The notes under the pieces are model-generated. The model was not told the origin of the DNA. It saw nothing but the letters and a program-made list of their open reading frames with translations, and did not search any database. DNA of 32,000 nt from Desulfotalea psychrophila LSv54 (GTDB lineage Bacteria; Desulfobacterota; Desulfobulbia; Desulfobulbales; Desulfocapsaceae): contig NC_006138.1 of NCBI RefSeq assembly GCF_000025945.1, positions 60,001 to 92,000 of the forward strand, in the 5' to 3' direction. The position numbers and the translations under genes are program-made. Below, piece by piece: positions 61 through 25,500 of the stretch; within the stretch, counting starts at the first letter, position 1; each line of letters begins with the position of its first letter.

Positions 61-428
61 TTACAAAACAAGACGTCGAACGCCATCCACCAAGCGAAGC
101 ACATTAAAATTGATCAATAATCCAGTATGTACCCCAGCAAGCTTCATATAGGTCAACACCTGAGCAGTATGAAGTGGCAACAATGCTTCCACCACCTTCA
201 GTTCAATAATGAGCTCATCAACGACAAGAAGATCAATACGATATCCCGCATCAATCTCAATTCCCTTATAGCGAAGAGGTAACATAACCTGAGTACGCAC
301 AGCATGAGACCTTACAACTCATACAGCAAACAACGTTCATAGCTTGATTCAAGCAAACCAGGACCAAGCTCACGATCAACTTCTATAGCACAACCAATCA
401 CTACGCCTGTCAACTCTTTGGCATCCAT
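61..428 (-). pseudogene. GxxExxY protein (small PD-(D/E)XK nuclease-like family), disrupted by a frameshift
   Basis: The ATG at 428 reads MDAKELTGVVIGCAIEVDRELGPGLLESSYERCLLYEL and then hits TAA at 314-312. The family C-terminus (RTQVMLPLRYKGIEIDAGYRIDLLVVDELIIELKVVEALLPLHTAQVLTYMKLAGVHTGLLINFNV, ORF 61-300) continues in a different frame. GLLESSY is the GxxExxY signature. A single indel near 311-320 would restore a protein of about 121 aa. Confidence 0.8.
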
Positions 429-491
429 AGCATCCTCTGTGTTCTTGGTCTCAATAATTAAAAACAAAGATAAGAACAGAAAAAACTACAG

Positions 492-527
492 TTAACCACA
501 GAGAAAAGGAGTTCACAGAGAAGAGCA
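492..527 (+). repeat. mosaic repeat, module A
   Basis: TTAACCACAGAG at 492-503 and a second CACAGAG at 514-520 (17-nt phasing). Confidence 0.8.
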
Positions 528-632
528 TTATAGATAAACTGCTTAAAGACAAAAAACAAAGATCAACTACTATAGTAGTTATCAATGTCCCCAAAAGAAC
601 TAGGTATTTAATCTTTATTTTTACTACTTTTA

Positions 633-673
633 AATAATTTCCTCTGTGTCCTCTTCTTCCTCTGTGGTTAACC
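633..673 (-). repeat. mosaic repeat, module A, abutting the ddl stop codon
   Basis: CTCTGTG at 642-648 and CTCTGTGGTTAA at 660-671 (18-nt phasing). The TAA of GGTTAACC on the minus strand (670-668) is the ddl stop codon. Confidence 0.85.
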
Positions 674-3565: not shown

Positions 3566-3572
3566 GTGTGGT

Positions 3573-3606
3573 GTTTCCAGTCCTATCTTTCGATAGGGCT
3601 GGAAAC
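3573..3606 (+). terminator. stem-loop directly after rpsU (no U-tract)
   Basis: GTTTCCAGTCCTATC (3573-3587) pairs with GATAGGGCTGGAAAC (3592-3606) over 15 positions, including one G-U. It starts 8 nt after the stop codon. No T-run follows, so it may be a processing or stability hairpin rather than an intrinsic terminator. Confidence 0.45.
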
Positions 3607-3650
3607 TACAGATGTCAGAAAGAACTTAAAAGCAACAACAAGAAAAAAAG

Positions 3651-3690
3651 TTAACCACAGAGGAAAATGAGGACACAGAGAGATTTTTTT
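3651..3690 (+). repeat. mosaic repeat, module A
   Basis: TTAACCACAGAG at 3651-3662, CACAGAG at 3674-3680 (18-nt phasing), T7 at 3684-3690. Confidence 0.85.
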
Positions 3691-3788
3691 GTGAACGGCA
3701 AACAAGCTCCCCCCTCTCTCTCATCGTACCCACCTCCTAGCATAATCAGCAAACGGGCCACCCACTCCCCACCCCAAAAAAGCTCTAT

Positions 3789-3807
3789 CGGAATGGCGAG
3801 CTGTCAG
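3789..3807 (+). repeat. mosaic repeat, 3' half of module C plus a CTGTCAG unit
   Basis: CGGAATGGCGAGCTGTCAG is identical to the corresponding part of 20330-20350. Confidence 0.7.
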
Positions 3808-3992
3808 TTAAGAGCAAAAAACGCTTTAAAGTTACATGTTAGTAAGAATTTATTTCACCATTGCATTACCCCTCCAGACAGATCCTTCTCACAGCACAAA
3901 TCTTTTTAAAACAAATAAATATTCACCATCTCTATCCCCATTTTTTAAAATTCAGCTCCTTGCTCTAACCCCAGCATCTTTTTCTTGTTTCT

Positions 3993-4048
3993 CCGCCACT
4001 CCGCTGCGCTTTGCTGCTGCTTTTTAATTAGTTTCCTCTGCGGTTAAC
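3993..4048 (-). repeat. mosaic repeat, degenerate module C plus partial module A
   Basis: CCGCCACTCCGCTGCGCTTTGCTGCTGC (3993-4020) is followed by CCTCTGCGGTTAAC (4035-4048). Confidence 0.6.
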
Positions 4049-4089
4049 TTTTTTCTTCTCCTGTTTTTCTCGCTGTTTCTCTCGTTGTT

Positions 4090-4183
4090 GCTTTTCGTCG
4101 TTCGCTTTTTATCAAAAAACCTCTGTGCTCTCTGTGATCTCTGTGGTTAGCTGTCTTCGCCACTCCGCCCTGCTTCACTGCTG
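4090..4183 (-). repeat. mosaic repeat, modules D + A (3 units) + C
   Basis: The reverse complement of 4090-4110 matches 16290-16310 (AAAAAGCGAACGACGAAAAGC) at 21/21. CTCTGTG occurs at 4121, 4130 and 4139 (9-nt phasing), followed by GTTAGC. CTTCGCCACTCCGCCCTGCTTCACTGCTG is at 4155-4183. Confidence 0.85.
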
Positions 4184-4309
4184 TCCTGTTTTTCTTTTCT
4201 TTTTTATTGGTCGATTGAAAGCCTGTGAAGCTTTAGCCTCAACATGTTACACTTGCGAAAAATATCTCGTTTACTATCAAAGTGATCTTGAAAAAATATA
4301 AGGACAAAC

Positions 4310-7654: not shown

Positions 7655-7660
7655 AAGCAG

Positions 7661-7702
7661 ATGCTAGATGCTAGATGCTAGATGCTAGATGCTAGATGCT
7701 AG
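7661..7702 (+). repeat. tandem heptad array (ATGCTAG) x6
   Basis: Six perfect units start 6 nt after the site-2 protease stop codon. Confidence 0.95.
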
Positions 7703-7713
7703 AAAAAAATTAA

Positions 7714-7739
7714 CAGCAGCAGCGAAGCGGAATGGCGAG
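7714..7739 (+). repeat. mosaic repeat, module C variant
   Basis: CAGCAGCAGCGAAGCGGAATGGCGAG shares the GCGGAATGGCGAG core with 20328-20343 and 31944-31958. Confidence 0.65.
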
Positions 7740-7818
7740 TGCTAACGGCAAAAACTAAAAGAAAAAAGCAGAAACTGCGAACAGCAACAGCAAGGGAATT
7801 TACAGCCTGGAGGAAGAG

Positions 7819-8178
7819 ATGCTTTATGAGAATCTTGATGTCTGGAAGCGCAGTAGAGTGTTGGCTATCGAAACGTATACTGTTTTTAAAAATTGCAGAG
7901 ATTTTGGTTTTAAAGATCAAATTACTCGCTCATCTCTATCTGTTCCCAGTAATCTTGCAGAAGGTTGCGAAAGAACATCGATTCTCGAACGTATTCGCTT
8001 TTTTGATATTGCTAAAGGTTCTTTGGGCGAATTCAAGACGCAGGTCGACATTGGTATTGCGATTGACTATATAGAGTCCCGGCAAGGATCTCTTTGGTTG
8101 CGAGAGTCTGATGAAATTTCGCGGATGATTGCTGCAATGATGATAAAAATGAGACAGCAAAAAGAAAGCAAGAGCTGA
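7819..8178 (+). CDS. four helix bundle protein (23S rRNA intervening-sequence protein family, Avd-like)
   Basis: 119 aa. NLDVWKRSRVLAIETY...FKDQITRSSLSVPSNLAEGCERTS..ERIRFFDIAKGSLGEFKTQVDI matches the family signature (SxPSNIAEG, F..IA.GS..E). GGAGGA is at 7809-7814. Confidence 0.9.
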   Translation: MLYENLDVWKRSRVLAIETYTVFKNCRDFGFKDQITRSSLSVPSNLAEGCERTSILERIRFFDIAKGSLGEFKTQVDIGIAIDYIESRQGSLWLRESDEISRMIAAMMIKMRQQKESKS

Positions 8179-8188
8179 CACTAGGTAT

Positions 8189-8236
8189 TAGAAGCTACAG
8201 ATGCTAGAAGCTACAGATACGAGATACTAGATACTA
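8189..8236 (+). repeat. degenerate heptad-derived tract
   Basis: TAGAAGCTACAGATRC occurs twice (8189-8220), followed by GAGATAC and TAGATAC heptads. It is related to the CAGATACGAGATGCTAG prefix seen at 16147-16163. Confidence 0.7.
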
Positions 8237-8404
8237 AAAAGCGCAACTGCAAGAAAAGCCTAAAAGCAGCAGAGAGTCGGAGCGGATCGTCTCACATTAA
8301 AGCACTATTTTTTATATATTTTTTGTGTTTGTTCTTCTTTTGTCTTTCTGCCCTTGCGCTGGCTTTTTTCTGATAGCTTCAAGCTTATAGCTTTACCGCT
8401 TTTT

Positions 8405-8460
8405 CTAGCATCTCGAATCTAGCATCTAATATCTGTCTTTCTGCTCTTTCTAGCATCTCT
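8405..8460 (-). repeat. inverted heptad blocks (CTAGCATC x3)
   Basis: CTAGCATC at 8405, 8419 and 8450 is the reverse complement of the GATGCTAG units at 7661-7702. The interspersed CTGTCTTTCTGCTCTTTC is the reverse complement of the GAAAGAGCAGAAAGACAG-type prefix. Confidence 0.75.
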
Positions 8461-8476
8461 AAAGGATTTTTCACAA

Positions 8477-9352
8477 ATGCTTCCACAATCGAATCAGTCC
8501 AAGGGCCTTCTCATCGCCGCCCTTGGTGTCCTGGCCCTGACACCCGACACCCTGCTCGTTCGTCTAGCCCATCTTGACAGTACCACCCTGCTCTTTTGGC
8601 GAGGACTTGCCACCCTCATTGGTATGAGCGCAGTCACCCTCCTCCAGCATGGCAGGGACACGGCCCATCAGTTTCGCCAAATCGGCAAGACCGGTATCGG
8701 GGTGGGACTGTTGATGGGTTGCAGTAGCTGCTGTTTTGTCATGGCCCTCTACTATACCAGTGTTGCCAATACCCTGGTCATCCTCTCCTCCTCGCCGATA
8801 TTTGCCGCCCTGTACAGTCGAGTCTTCCTGAAGGAAAGGGTGGCCGGCAGAACCATTATCAGCATAATAGTGGTAATCACCGCCATCTCCTTCATTGTCG
8901 GCGACAGCGAGGGTAGCACCAGTCTCCTGGGCAACTGCATCGCCCTCTGTGCAGCAATGTGCATGTCAGCCGGTTTCACCATGATGCGCAGTGGGAAAAA
9001 ACGCAATATGATACCTGCCACTGCCCTGGGAGGAATCATCCTCATCTGCGTCGGAGCAAGTCTGGCTCCATCCCTGGCACTCTCCTGGCAACAGGCGGCC
9101 CTTATTGTCTGCATGGGCGTCTCCTCTGCGGCGGGATTTATCATGATCACCATGGCCACCCGTTATATCAGTTCACCCGAGGTCAGCCTTCTGATGCCCA
9201 TCGAAACGGTGCTGGCCAGTTATATCGTTTGGCTCGTTCTGGGAGAGGCCCCCGCGACCATAACCATCATCGGTGGCATAGTCATTATTAGCACCCTCAG
9301 CCTCCACTCCTTGCTGTCACTACGTTCCATCCCAGCCCGGCCCCTCGATTGA
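8477..9352 (+). CDS. DMT (EamA-like) family transporter
   Basis: 291 aa with about 10 hydrophobic helices in two EamA-like halves. Confidence 0.8.
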   Translation: MLPQSNQSKGLLIAALGVLALTPDTLLVRLAHLDSTTLLFWRGLATLIGMSAVTLLQHGRDTAHQFRQIGKTGIGVGLLMGCSSCCFVMALYYTSVANTLVILSSSPIFAALYSRVFLKERVAGRTIISIIVVITAISFIVGDSEGSTSLLGNCIALCAAMCMSAGFTMMRSGKKRNMIPATALGGIILICVGASLAPSLALSWQQAALIVCMGVSSAAGFIMITMATRYISSPEVSLLMPIETVLASYIVWLVLGEAPATITIIGGIVIISTLSLHSLLSLRSIPARPLD

Positions 9353-9677: not shown

Positions 9678-11795
9678 ATGTCAGCGCATACCGCCTCTCT
9701 CCGTCCTGTAGTCTTTACCCATGTTAAAAAAAGAACTGGTAATATTGTTCCCTTTGAGTCTGCCAAGATAACCGCCGCCCTCGAGAAAGCAGGTCTTGCC
9801 ACAGAGGAATTTGCCCAGGACGAGGCGCGCCGTCTAACTATTCGTGTTCTCACCCTCGCCTATGAGGTATTGCCTGAGACACCAGAAGTTGAACAGCTCC
9901 AGGATCTGGTGGAGGAGGTACTTCTCGCCTCTCCCCATAGAAAAACAGCCAAATCTTATATTCTCTACCGCGATCAGCAAAAACGACGCCGGCAGATGAT
10001 TGAGCAGGCGGATATTCAGCTCATTGACAACTACCTTGAGCGTCTTGATTGGCAGGTAAACGAGAACAGCAATATGGCCTACTCCCTTCAGGGTCTCAAT
10101 AACTATATTGCCAACGAAACCAGCAAGAACTACTGGCTGCACCGCATCTACCCACCAGAGGTGCGTGATGCCCACGAGCAGGGTGATCTCCATATCCATG
10201 ATCTTGGCCTGCTGTCGGTATACTGCGTTGGCTGGGACCTTCAGGATCTTCTTAAAAACGGTTTTCGTGGAGTAGCAGGCAAGGCTGCATCTGCTCCGGC
10301 AAAACACTTCCGAAGCGCCCTGGGTCAGGTGGTAAACTTTTTCTACACCCTGCAGGGAGAAGCTGCCGGTGCCCAGGCTTTTTCAAGTTTTGATACCCTG
10401 CTCGCCCCCTTTATCCGCAAGGACGGTTTAACCTTCAAGGAGGTTAAACAAGCCGTACAGGAGTTTATCTTTAACCTGAACGTACCTACCCGGGTTGGTT
10501 TTCAAACACCCTTCACCAACCTGACCATGGATCTGCAACCACCCTCCACCCTACGTGATGAGCCAGCTAAGATTGGTGGCGTAGACCAGGAGAACTGCTA
10601 CAGTGATTATCAGGTGGAGATGAACATGATCAACGAGGCCTTCCTCGAGGTTATGTCCGAAGGTGATGCCAATGCCCGTGTTTTCACCTTCCCTATTCCG
10701 ACCTACAATATCACTGAAGATTTTAACTGGGACGACAAGAGCCTGGACAAGCTCTGGAGCGTCACGGCAAAATACGGCATCCCCTATTTTGCCAACTTTG
10801 TTAACTCGGACCTCTCCGTTGACGATGCCCGTTCCATGTGCTGTCGCCTTCGTCTTGATACCCGCGAACTGGAAAAACGTGGTGGTGGTCTCTTTGGTGC
10901 CAATCCACTCACCGGTTCCATCGGTGTTGTGACCATGAACCTGGTGGCACTTGGCCAGCAAAGTAACAGCGAAGAAGAATTTTTCACCCGACTTGACCAC
11001 CAGTTAGAGATTGCCCGTACCAGTCTTGAGATTAAACGTAAGGTGCTCGAAGACTACACTGCCAAGGGACTCTACCCATACACCAAGTATTATCTGCGTC
11101 AGGTTCACAATCGTTTCCAAAAATATTGGGAAAACCACTTCTCCACCATCGGCGTTATCGGTGCCAATGAGGCCTGTATCGGCGTTGTCGGCCATAATAT
11201 CGGCGACCCTGAAGGCAATAAATTTGCCACGGATATCCTCGACTATATCAGAGAAAAACTCCAGCAATTCCAAACAGAAACAGGGAATCTCTACAACCTT
11301 GAGGCAACCCCTGCCGAGGGCACCGGTTTTCGTTTGGCCCAGATAGACAAGAAACGTTTTCCTGAAATGAAGACAGCTCTCTGCACCGACGATGGCAGCA
11401 CCCCCATCTACACCAACTCGACCCAGTTGCCCATCAACTACAGCGATGATATTTACAAGATCCTTGATCTGCAGGATAACCTCCAGACCAAATATACAGG
11501 CGGTACTGTACAGCATATCTTCCTCGGTGAGGCAGCACCTGATCCAGTGGCAGTAAAAGCATTTGTCAAATCTATCTGCAATAACTACCAGATTCCATAT
11601 TTTACCATCAGCCCTTCATTCTCCATCTGCCCTGAGCATGGCTACCTGTTAGGGGAAGTTGAAAAATGCCCCACCTGTGATGGCCCAACGGAGATTTACT
11701 CACGGGTTGTGGGCTATCTTCGCCCCGTACAACAGTGGAACGATGGCAAAAAGGCAGAATTCAAACAACGCTCTCATTTCAAGGTCGGTAAATAA
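9678..11795 (+). CDS. nrdD: anaerobic ribonucleoside-triphosphate reductase (class III)
   Basis: 705 aa. It has an N-terminal ATP-cone (VKKRTGNIVPFESAKITAALEKA) and a C-terminal zinc site (CPEHG...CPTCDG). The glycyl-radical motif RVVGYLRP is near the C-terminus. Confidence 0.95.
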   Translation: MSAHTASLRPVVFTHVKKRTGNIVPFESAKITAALEKAGLATEEFAQDEARRLTIRVLTLAYEVLPETPEVEQLQDLVEEVLLASPHRKTAKSYILYRDQQKRRRQMIEQADIQLIDNYLERLDWQVNENSNMAYSLQGLNNYIANETSKNYWLHRIYPPEVRDAHEQGDLHIHDLGLLSVYCVGWDLQDLLKNGFRGVAGKAASAPAKHFRSALGQVVNFFYTLQGEAAGAQAFSSFDTLLAPFIRKDGLTFKEVKQAVQEFIFNLNVPTRVGFQTPFTNLTMDLQPPSTLRDEPAKIGGVDQENCYSDYQVEMNMINEAFLEVMSEGDANARVFTFPIPTYNITEDFNWDDKSLDKLWSVTAKYGIPYFANFVNSDLSVDDARSMCCRLRLDTRELEKRGGGLFGANPLTGSIGVVTMNLVALGQQSNSEEEFFTRLDHQLEIARTSLEIKRKVLEDYTAKGLYPYTKYYLRQVHNRFQKYWENHFSTIGVIGANEACIGVVGHNIGDPEGNKFATDILDYIREKLQQFQTETGNLYNLEATPAEGTGFRLAQIDKKRFPEMKTALCTDDGSTPIYTNSTQLPINYSDDIYKILDLQDNLQTKYTGGTVQHIFLGEAAPDPVAVKAFVKSICNNYQIPYFTISPSFSICPEHGYLLGEVEKCPTCDGPTEIYSRVVGYLRPVQQWNDGKKAEFKQRSHFKVGK

Positions 11796-12415
11796 TGCGT
11801 ATAGGTGGTCTACAAAAATTCACCCTCTCTGACTATCCGGGAGTACCCGCTGCCATCATCTTCACTCAGGGATGCAACTATCGTTGCCCCTTCTGCCACA
11901 ATGGGAACCTATTGCCCATGCAGGGGAGTGAAGAGATCGAGGTAGAAGAGGTCCTCTCCTGGTTACGGGAGAGACAGGGAAAGCTCGACGGGGTAGTCAT
12001 TACCGGTGGTGAACCCACCCTGCAGGCTGATCTTGGTTCCTTTATCTGCCAGATCAGAGAGATGGGGTATAAAATCAAGCTCGATAGCAATGGCAGCCAT
12101 CCAGAAGTATTGGAAAAGCTGCTCGATCAGGGCCTCATTGATTTTGTGGCCATGGATGTTAAGGCCCCGGCAGCTAAATACTCTCGGCTTTGCGGGGTCA
12201 AGGTTAATCTTGAGCACATAGAGCAGAGCATGGAGATCATTGCCAAATCTGGTGTTGAGCACCTCTTCCGGACCACCTATGTCGAGGCCTTTTTGGATGA
12301 GGCTGATTTAGCGGAGATCCGGGGACTGATACCGACGGGCTCAACCTATGTGCAACAGTCTTTTCGTCCTGAGAATGCTCTTAGTGAGGAATTGAGACAA
12401 ACAAAAAGCGATTAA
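11795..12415 (+). CDS. nrdG: anaerobic ribonucleotide reductase activating protein (radical SAM)
   Basis: It has the CNYRCPFCHN radical-SAM cluster motif and a GGEPTL block. The start overlaps the nrdD stop (TAATG). Confidence 0.9.
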   Translation: MRIGGLQKFTLSDYPGVPAAIIFTQGCNYRCPFCHNGNLLPMQGSEEIEVEEVLSWLRERQGKLDGVVITGGEPTLQADLGSFICQIREMGYKIKLDSNGSHPEVLEKLLDQGLIDFVAMDVKAPAAKYSRLCGVKVNLEHIEQSMEIIAKSGVEHLFRTTYVEAFLDEADLAEIRGLIPTGSTYVQQSFRPENALSEELRQTKSD

Positions 12416-12451: not shown

Positions 12452-12548
12452 AGGTAAAGAACCAAAAAACTTTGACTGTGAAGCTCTAGCGAAATGATGA
12501 ACCTCTCTCCGACAGAAGTTCAAGCAGTTAATCTTTTCACAAAAAACA

Positions 12549-12638
12549 CTCTGTGGACTCTGTGGACTCTGTGGACTCTGTGGACTCTGTGGACTCTGTG
12601 GACTCTGTGGACTCTGTGGACTCTGTGGACTCTGTAGT
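12549..12638 (-). repeat. tandem 9-nt array (CTCTGTGGA) x9 plus one degenerate unit
   Basis: Nine perfect units span 12549-12629, followed by CTCTGTAGT. This is an expanded module A core in minus orientation, preceded by A6 (T-run on the minus strand). Confidence 0.95.
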
Positions 12639-15940: not shown

Positions 15941-16140
15941 GGAACACCACCTCACAGGTAAAAAGGAGAGCCAGGGACCTACAGTCAAGTAAACCCCATA
16001 AAAAAAAAGACCAGCACATCTGTTGATGCAGGCCCTTTCTCATATAGCACACGCTAATTCTCTTCAATAAAAGTAAAGAATATGACTTATAATCAATTTT
16101 TATACTTTTAACAGCCTTAAATTTTTAGGGAAAGGGCGGA

Positions 16141-16310
<170 letters not shown>

Positions 16311-16393
16311 AGGAAGGGCAGAGGGCACAGAGGAAATTATTAAAAAAGCAACAGAGAGAGAAACAACGAGAAAAATCAAGCTATTAGCGCAAT

Positions 16394-16419
16394 CGACATT
16401 CCGATCTGCTTCACTGCTG
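16394..16419 (-). repeat. mosaic repeat, degenerate module C
   Basis: CGACATTCCGATCTGCTTCACTGCTG resembles CGCCATTCCGCGATGCTTCACTGCTC at 12901-12926. Confidence 0.55.
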
Positions 16420-16500
16420 TTTTTTAGGCTTTTCTAGCCTCTGCTCTTTCTGACAGCTGATAGCTCCAGTCTTAAAGCTGTCTTTTCTGTAGTTTATATA

Positions 16501-16625
16501 AAAAGTTTCTCTGTGTTCTCCTAAGCAGTGGTTAACATTTGCTGTTGCTGCTGTTTTTAGGTTTTTTCTAGCATCCGCCATTCCGCGGTGCTCCACTGCT
16601 CGCATCTAGTATCTGCTCTTTCTGC
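16501..16625 (-). repeat. composite mosaic element (inverted partner of 16141-16310)
   Basis: The reverse complement reads GAAAGAGCAGATACTAGATGCGA-GCAGTGGAGCACCGCGGAATGGCG-GATGCTAGAAAAAAC..CAGCAGCAACAGCAAATGTTAACCAC..CACAGAGAAACTTTT. The C core at 16576-16599 matches 20318-20341 at 24/24. Confidence 0.9.
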
Positions 16626-20318: not shown

Positions 20319-20487
<169 letters not shown>

Positions 20488-25172: not shown

Positions 25173-25219
25173 GAGAACAACAGCTGGCAGTTATCAAATA
25201 GATGAGGACAAAAAAACAA

Positions 25220-25500
<281 letters not shown>

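Follow-up and report, generated by a model that had tools for sequence, protein, structure and literature searches.

A putative intervening-sequence-type cassette between protein-coding genes of Desulfotalea psychrophila: a four-helix-bundle gene bracketed by inverted heptad arrays

Introduction

Intervening sequences (IVSs) that contain an open reading frame (ORF) have been described in the 23S ribosomal RNA (rRNA) genes of Leptospira and Coxiella burnetii. In Coxiella, RNase III cuts the IVS within a terminal stem of 28 bp, and three tandem copies of GACAGAT lie upstream of the ORF (PMC4990558). Here we analyse 32,000 nt of the genome of Desulfotalea psychrophila LSv54 (NC_006138.1, positions 60,001 to 92,000; this whole stretch is called the window), in which a gene of the same protein family, at 7819-8178, lies between two inverted arrays of heptamers within an 822-nt block. 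This cassette shares several features with the rRNA IVSs: the same protein family occupies the loop, terminal inverted repeats could form a long stem (here and in 45 of 76 related loci), tandem heptamers precede the ORF as in Coxiella, and the distribution is patchy and horizontally acquired. It differs in that its arms are themselves tandem heptad arrays and in that it lies between protein-coding genes (for an M50 protease and an EamA protein), with no rRNA in the window or in about 170 related loci. In addition, RNase III is known to cut the IVS stem (PMC4990558), whereas for this cassette it is a presumed nuclease. We therefore class the locus with the IVS elements, as a member located outside rRNA.

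Other described systems show parts of the same architecture. In the repetitive extragenic palindromic (REP) sequences and bacterial interspersed mosaic elements (BIMEs), which are associated with REP-associated tyrosine transposases (RAYTs) in REPtrons and with REP doublets forming hairpins (REPINs), a gene also lies between oppositely oriented copies of one short repeat, and ORF-less hairpin copies of mosaic composition are also scattered in intergenic regions. However, REP units are palindromes of 20-40 nt, whereas the repeats considered here are tandem 7-9-mers, and the enclosed genes encode no HUH/Y1 transposase but belong to one of two unrelated small families, PF05635 or PF13366. Unexplained heptamers have been reported as TAACTGA in Beggiatoaceae, cyanobacteria and Bacteroidetes (PMC4679880), as convergent GGGAATC pairs in Xanthomonas, with heptamers also noted in Nostoc (PMC4692102), and as heptanucleotide hairpins in Geobacter (PMC2700814). 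Like the arrays described below, the reported heptamers, including the cyanobacterial short tandemly repeated repetitive (STRR) sequences, are tandem, intergenic and sometimes arranged as convergent pairs, and the same unit recurs in distant phyla without a known route of transfer (PMC4679880, PMC4692102, PMC2700814). Neither PF05635 nor PF13366 is connected with the repeats in these papers, whereas here the link is statistical and directional. Integron gene cassettes and miniature inverted-repeat transposable elements also combine small, promoter-less, co-directional ORFs with imperfect inverted repeats and ORF-less derivatives, but the present cassettes have no integrase and no attC site, and their repeats flank the ORF on both sides.

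We found no description of repeat-flanked PF05635 or PF13366 cassettes outside rRNA, and none beyond the Coxiella IVS, in the searchable literature, which largely omits subscription journals and curators' notes. The regularity of inverted arms across the family, documented below, appears to be undescribed so far.

Architecture of the cassette and its inverted heptad arms

The features of the block, in coordinates of the window, are as follows.

7655-8476, plus strand: whole inserted block, 822 nt, between the M50 protease stop codon and the EamA start codon
7659-7703, plus strand: left arm, heptad array (AGATGCT)x6.4, 100% perfect by Tandem Repeats Finder (TRF), 4 nt past the M50 stop codon (TAA 7652-7654)
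7704-7818, plus strand: leader, purine-rich, with mosaic modules GGAATGGCGAG at 7729 and GCAACAGCA at 7784; its 3' end holds the Shine-Dalgarno sequence GGAGG (7809-7813)
7819-8178, plus strand: four-helix-bundle gene, intact, 119 aa (PF05635 / TIGR02436 / NF008912), with GGAGG 5 nt before the ATG
8183-8236, plus strand: inner left arm, degenerate heptads in direct orientation (GAAGCTA, CAGATGC, AGATACG, AGATACT)
8335-8399, plus strand: inner right arm, pyrimidine-rich, partner of 8183-8236
8400-8458, plus strand: right arm, TTTTTCTAGCATCTCGAATCTAGCATCTAATATCT...TTTCTAGCATCT, reverse complement of the left arm

An initial annotation of this stretch had proposed that heptad arrays bracket the gene in inverted orientation, and TRF, a repeat finder and the sequence itself all confirmed this arrangement. 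The left array, which can also be written (ATGCTAG)x6 at 7661-7702, is opposed by inverted blocks CTAGCATC at 8405-8412, 8419-8426 and 8450-8457, and the top inverted pair returned by the repeat finder joins 7673-7707 to 8400-8434 (35 nt, 89% complementary). Allowing 2 mismatches at most, the window contains 19 copies of the two-heptad pattern AGATGCTAGATGCT, where 0.26 are expected. Between the ORF and the right arm, 8183-8236 and 8335-8399 make up an ORF-less hairpin nested in the outer stem.

The same annotation had suggested that the flanks could pair in a transcript and leave the ORF in the loop. When the whole 821-nt RNA was folded, the outer arms paired in both the minimum free energy (MFE) and the centroid structures, with the left arm (7659-7703) joined to 8403-8458, and in the Boltzmann ensemble 7659-7707 paired into 8395-8465 with a mean probability of 0.85. 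The predicted outer stem consists of four helices, 7659-7668/8449-8458 (10 bp), 7672-7677/8430-8435 (6 bp), 7679-7690/8417-8428 (12 bp) and 7694-7704/8403-8413 (11 bp). The inner hairpin, for which the MFE structure joins 8191-8217 to 8369-8394, showed a pairing probability of 0.37. These predictions support the ORF-in-loop fold as thermodynamically favoured.

The four-helix-bundle gene

[quoted passage not shown] The product is 100% identical to a 'four helix bundle protein' of Desulfotalea psychrophila at NCBI, and its closest sequence match in the PDB is 2GSC (XCC0516; E=5.3e-15, residues 3-114), a representative PF05635 structure, which is homologous to Avd (PMC10053308).

PF05635 is the Pfam family that resembles Avd, and the superfamily relation between the two is documented (PMC10053308). 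It might therefore be proposed that the gene product, which has the four-helix-bundle fold of Avd, serves a diversity-generating retroelement (DGR) as its Avd accessory protein. However, PF05635 was the sole Pfam hit reported for the 119-aa product, the bAvd profile PF22296 being unmatched at E<=0.01; no reverse transcriptase (RVT domain) was found in any of the window's 20 larger ORFs, and the window also shows no template repeats; and the genomic context is another one, since the adjoining genes are housekeeping genes and near homologs are located in polysaccharide operons. The connection to Avd raised by the initial annotation thus survives at the level of the superfamily only. We consider an Avd function of this gene extremely unlikely, and within the window the sequence evidence excludes a role in a DGR.

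Insertion between the M50 protease and EamA genes

The nearest available relative, judged by its M50 protease (78% identity), is a Desulfotalea sp. contig (L177) that is syntenic with the window across the genes for Ddl, an FAD oxidase, S21, the CBS-polyA polymerase, M50, EamA (59% identical proteins), FadL and an AMP-binding enzyme. DNA alignments between the two hold on either side of the insertion site. At this site L177 is empty, with 1 nt between the M50 TAA and the EamA ATG (TAA A ATG AAA ATG CTA...), and the corresponding stop and start codons of D. psychrophila stand 822 nt apart (7655-8476). TRF found no heptad array in L177. Moreover, L177 and a second relative (L178) are nearly free of the short repeat modules that make up the cassette arms and the mosaic intergenic elements of the window, since their 12.6 kb contain 1 CACAGAG and 0 AGATGCT, compared with 33 and 21, respectively, in the first 16.7 kb of the window. 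The empty site and the module-poor relatives indicate that the cassette and the mosaic elements were gained in the D. psychrophila lineage, and from this comparison of sequences we conclude that the 7655-8476 block is an insertion.

The pentanucleotide ATGCT stands at both ends of the insert, at 7661 in the first heptad and at 8477 in the start of EamA (ATG CTT). Either a target duplication or chance may account for this, since a match of 5 nt could be fortuitous; the 5' end of the L177 EamA gene also holds ATGCTA. The M50, cassette and EamA genes are co-directional, no terminator was found between them, and promoter-like sites across the three were not above chance, so that expression of EamA plausibly depends on read-through of the cassette.

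A further difference lies between EamA and FadL, where two ORFs of 705 and 206 aa (9678-12415), read from their translations as the anaerobic ribonucleotide reductase proteins NrdD and NrdG, are missing from the corresponding position in L177, suggesting that several lineage-specific insertions have occurred at this locus.

Inverted arrays across the PF05635 family

The counts for PF05635 are based on a sample of at least 80 loci with 34-53% identity, one genome per species, from Gammaproteobacteria, Campylobacterota, Verrucomicrobiota, Planctomycetota, Bacteroidota, Clostridia, Acidobacteriota and other phyla. An array was defined as a tandem repeat of period 5-10 with at least 2.8 copies within 150 nt of the gene, and ORFs of at least 100 aa from the same loci served as controls. 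Arrays were present on at least one side of 61/76 PF05635 genes and 91/426 control ORFs (Fisher p = 7e-23), and on both sides of 34/76 and 21/426, respectively (p = 7.5e-18). Units of 7 nt were the most common in these loci (102 arrays), followed by those of 8 nt (27 arrays).

The two arrays of a locus are related to each other by complementarity. Among two-sided loci, the downstream unit was the reverse complement of the upstream unit in 28/35 cases and a direct copy in 1, allowing at most 1 mismatch over rotations. With extra loci added, 30/41 showed reverse-complement units, compared with 1.95% for arrays taken from mismatched loci (binomial p ~1e-42). Local alignment likewise revealed a flank-to-flank stem, with a median length of 30 nt, in 45/76 PF05635 loci and in only 4/218 mismatched pairs. 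The units themselves vary among loci (AAGTAGC/ACTTGCT, TAGAGGG/TCTACCC and GTGAAAAG/TTTTCACT, for example), and two paralogs in one genome had different units. The arms therefore covary, in that complementarity is conserved across phyla and sequence is not. Folding of 150-nt flanks as RNA duplexes separated genes from controls modestly (-70 vs -58 kcal/mol), and arm complementarity was judged by the unit-level and local-alignment tests in its place.

The association is also directional. On the sense strand, purines are enriched in the upstream unit (0.64 vs 0.45, p = 2e-7), and both neighbouring genes are co-directional with the PF05635 gene in 49/69 loci. Three further loops between inverted arrays (350-460 nt), which had not been used as seeds, were found in these loci, and each contained another PF05635 gene; ORF-less short hairpins of the same units were present as well.

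A sceptical reading of these results is that heptads are slippage-prone simple repeats of ordinary intergenic DNA in which the gene merely happens to be located. Arrays do occur in 27% of the other intergenic gaps of the same genomes, and bacteria are long known to have heptamer repeats in excess (PMC4692102). However, the enrichment persisted when only intergenic gaps of 80-600 nt were compared (51/77 for PF05635 vs 61/222 for others, p = 4e-9), and neither the complementarity of the arms, at 30/41 against 2%, nor the ratio of 28 inverted to 1 direct units fits such an origin. Coincidence is effectively refuted, and we give it hardly any weight.

No 23S or 16S rRNA motif was detected in the roughly 170 fetched loci, and no Rfam family, rRNA included, matched the window. 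The rRNA location from which the family takes its name is thus the exception. A role of the arrays as stop-codon insulators was considered and is unsupported, since the upstream array units contained 29 stops, with 27.7 expected.

Two plasmids of cyanobacteria also have this layout. In Anabaena sp. 90 plasmid pANA02 (L009, 2620-3462), the cas6 and cas4 genes of a type I-D CRISPR operon are separated by a four-helix-bundle cassette, which has TGACAGG/GAACAGG in about 40 copies upstream and the complement CTGTCAC downstream, and a further CTGTCAC array lies between cas4 and cas1. In Nostoc PCC 7120 plasmid gamma (L006, 910-3406), an ISL3 transposase gene separates the four-helix-bundle ORF from its left arm (AAGGCAG x5, 910-946), the right arm being CTTCTGC; from its position the transposase looks like a secondary insertion into the loop.

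Heptads and genomic context of the closest homologs

The best hits outside D. psychrophila, at 60-70% identity, come from marine gammaproteobacteria and metagenomes. In every case examined, the gene of a close homolog is co-directional within a polysaccharide cluster, beside genes for an epimerase, Wzz or CpsB. In Vibrio rotiferianus (L001, 3959-4495), (TAGAGAC)x5 precedes and (TCTAGCA)x15 follows the gene. Among metagenomic relatives, the nearest three show (AGATACG)n or units related to it upstream, and their downstream units are (CTAGCAT)n in L175 and L176 and (CACCTAG)n in L173/L174, the downstream array continuing to the contig end in every case (L173-L176). Near homologs, at 62-70% identity, thus have heptads of the window, namely AGATGCT, AGATACG and CTAGCATC, which indicates that the arms travel with the gene across phyla.

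In a Paraglaciecola locus (L002, 5359-5388), an AGATGCT array in inverse orientation follows at a distance of about 1 kb, beyond the next epimerase gene, and arms can apparently bracket host genes too. Metagenomic contigs with these genes, L173-L176 and many short ones, often stop inside the downstream array; arrays of this kind break short-read assemblies, which will conceal the architecture in most metagenome data. Two carriers were considered for the gene and rejected: a cassette of the Vibrio superintegron, because close homologs lie in polysaccharide clusters and not in integrons, and phages, because only 3 relatives (L170-L172) were found among 2.9 million viral contigs.

Units were shared by 26% of protein pairs at 60% identity or more and by 4-6% of other pairs, and the Spearman coefficient between protein similarity and heptad was -0.07. 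These figures bear on the proposal that the heptads are binding sites of the encoded protein, which, as an oligomeric relative of Avd, would regulate its own gene or package its own RNA or DNA, a proposal compatible with either of the mechanisms weighed below. It would account for the facts that each cassette has its specific heptad, with differences between paralogs of one genome, and that sharing of heptads is commoner among close than among distant protein relatives, and the protein's place in the superfamily of the nucleic-acid-binding Avd is documented (PMC10053308). However, the correlation between protein and heptad is weak by both measures and is explained equally well by co-inheritance, and the same heptad also occurs in ORF-less elements far from the gene. 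We regard such binding as improbable.

The GxxExxY (PF13366) family and the mosaic elements

A second family found in the window, GxxExxY (PF13366), showed the same association with arrays, and mosaic elements of related composition lie in the intergenic regions. The features concerned are as follows.

61-428, minus strand: GxxExxY gene (PF13366, PD-(D/E)XK-like), with a frameshift near 300-312 that yields ORFs 312-467 and 61-300; one CACAGAG directly before the ATG
490-670, minus strand: ORF-less module-A hairpin, reading on the minus strand TTAACCACAGAG..CACAGAG, loop, CTCTGTG..CTCTGTGGTTAAC; termini match those of metagenomic GxxExxY cassettes
16148-16614, plus strand: ORF-less mosaic hairpin, left AGATGCT x5, GCAACA x8 and TTAACCACAGAG x3, right the complements in mirrored order

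In a sample of 80 metagenomic loci, arrays lay within 150 nt of 54/71 GxxExxY genes and 20/112 controls (p = 3e-15). At least two copies of CAC[ACG][AG]AG were found upstream in 45/75 GxxExxY loci, compared with 0/119 controls and 0/79 PF05635 loci, and the complement was found downstream in 48/76 GxxExxY loci and 2/119 controls. Here the sequence of the arms is itself conserved, with a 9-nt spacing and sharp termini (tcaCCACAGAG ... CTCTGTGGtga), and this motif is the module A of D. psychrophila (TTAACCACAGAG..CACAGAG / CTCTGTG..CTCTGTGGTTAAC). The initial annotation had named CACAGAG- or GCCAAGA-type repeats as often preceding members of both families in other phyla. For CACAGAG this is correct for GxxExxY only and not for the four-helix-bundle genes, and GCCAAGA-type repeats were found in 0/160 flanks.

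The gene at 61-428 had likewise been described as a GxxExxY gene between inverted copies of module A. Its two halves do match PF13366, at profile positions 1-35 and 43-116, and the copies at 30-45 and 497-520 are mutually inverted. However, the frame is split, which is either a pseudogene or a sequencing error, and the polarity of the two copies is opposite to that of canonical arms relative to the sense strand of the gene. They are therefore better read as ends of neighbouring elements, the copy at 497-520 belonging to the 490-670 hairpin and the one at 30-45 to the 5' arm of a further element that continues beyond the window. Two intact GxxExxY paralogs with 85-86% identity are encoded elsewhere in D. 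psychrophila, one of which (P0121) matches TIGR04256 with 145.6 bits.

Seven module patterns gave 115 hits in the 5.8 kb of intergenic DNA of the window and 26 in the 26.2 kb of coding DNA, and modules occupy 11/23 intergenic regions. The usual layout has purine-rich forms on the left and their complements on the right in mirrored order, as in the 16140-16625 element, the RNA fold of which has a z-score of -6.14. The mosaics mix the arm types of both cassette families (modules 'H' and 'A') with further modules, and only two of them enclose a gene. The hypothesis that mosaic elements and IVS cassettes belong together was thus supported, by the inverted heptad arms of PF05635 loci (30/41) on one side and the CACAGAG arms of PF13366 loci (45/75) on the other; IVS-type cassettes and mosaic repeats share building blocks.

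Several individual elements of the window deserve mention. Two long arrays are perfect, (ACTCTGTGG)x9.8 at 12548-12635 and (GCAACA)x14.7 at 20356-20443, and the former corresponds to an expanded module-A arm with the 9-nt spacing of GxxExxY cassettes elsewhere. The element at 25190-25500 contains 'plus' modules only (TTAACCACAGAG, AGCAGTG, GGAATGGCGA, AGCTGTCAG and AGATGCG x4), and the next gene is reached without an inverted partner, so not every mosaic element is a hairpin. In D. psychrophila, an ORF-less mosaic element of 744 nt (3566-4309) separates the S21 gene from the CBS-polyA-polymerase gene; the same place holds a full-length XerC/D-like tyrosine recombinase gene of 306 aa in L177 (2229-3149) and an 80-aa fragment of it in L178. 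A tblastn search found no remnant of the recombinase in the 3566-4309 mosaic.

Proposed mechanism

We consider it probable that 7655-8476 is an inserted IVS-type cassette, in which a promoter-less PF05635 gene with its own ribosome-binding site is enclosed by inverted heptad arms, and that it behaves as a selfish unit cut by RNase III. Such a unit would move horizontally, with its inverted arrays as boundaries. In transcripts of the host operon that run through the cassette, the two arrays would base-pair, forming a stem of about 46 bp with interruptions and looping out the ORF. By analogy with the 23S rRNA IVSs, this stem would be a likely target of RNase III, and cleavage would release the insert from the host transcript or insulate it within. 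Arms that persist or spread without the ORF would give rise to ORF-less hairpins such as those in the mosaic intergenic elements of D. psychrophila. On the strength of the rRNA analogy, we take this to be the best-supported mechanism.

Several observations weigh against it. The z-score of the whole-region fold is just -2.0 (20 shuffles). The stop codon is separated from the right arm by 226 nt plus the inner hairpin, whereas cassettes elsewhere are compact. The TAGAGAC and TCTAGCA arrays of the Vibrio homolog are not complementary, and no mobility enzyme, whether transposase, integrase or HUH enzyme, was found in the window. Finally, G-U mismatches in the stems are not in excess over A-C mismatches (38 vs 51 for PF05635, 57 vs 53 for PF13366), and sense and antisense duplexes have equal energies, so that nothing favours selection on the sense RNA over upkeep at the level of DNA.

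The mismatch counts and the equal duplex energies are in keeping with the main alternative, in which the element is maintained as DNA. Here the arms would be terminal inverted repeats or hairpins, in cruciform or single-stranded DNA, recognised by a trans-acting enzyme in the manner of RAYT and REP; this enzyme would move the cassette and multiply the ORF-less copies, the PD-(D/E)XK-like GxxExxY protein being a candidate for it, and pairing in RNA would be a by-product. The conserved, sharply bounded CACAGAG arms with their 9-nt spacing are typical of protein recognition sites and favour this explanation for the GxxExxY family. The spread of ORF-less modules over 11/23 intergenic regions, absent from the syntenic relative, and the possible ATGCT duplication at the two ends of the insert also point in this direction. 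However, the arms of PF05635 loci share complementarity alone and no conserved sequence, PF05635 has no catalytic domain, and the missing transposase, integrase or HUH enzyme counts against this alternative as well. The co-directionality of neighbours (49/69) and the purine-rich upstream arm, moreover, suggest dependence on a sense transcript. Taken for the locus as a whole, maintenance at the DNA level seems to us rather unlikely, and the IVS-type mechanism is preferred.

Implications

A broader reading would be that PF05635 and PF13366 genes with inverted arms form a widespread and hitherto undescribed class of bacterial stem-loop cassettes, of which the 23S IVSs are a rare special case, that their ORF-less derivatives explain much of the heptanucleotide excess, and that the proteins act on their own arms. 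This is a tentative proposal, which we hold to be possible though not the likelier outcome. If it is true, the heptad specific to each locus would be bound by the four-helix-bundle protein, CACAGAG hairpins would be substrates that the GxxExxY nuclease cuts, and mosaic intergenic elements like those of D. psychrophila would be ORF-less derivatives of cassettes. The architecture predicts cuts by RNase III in the arms, binding of the four-helix-bundle protein to (AGATGCT)n, action of the GxxExxY protein on CACAGAG hairpins, and new copies that vary between strains.

One explanation might then serve for the nature of ORF-containing rRNA intervening sequences, for two small families of unknown function that are present in many copies per genome and inside conserved operons (capsule, O-antigen, type I-D cas), and for the excess of tandem heptamers common to distant phyla without a known route of transfer. 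There is also a practical side, in that the arrays break short-read assemblies and the cassettes insert into serotyping operons. Elements known mainly from ribosomal RNA genes also occur between ordinary genes.

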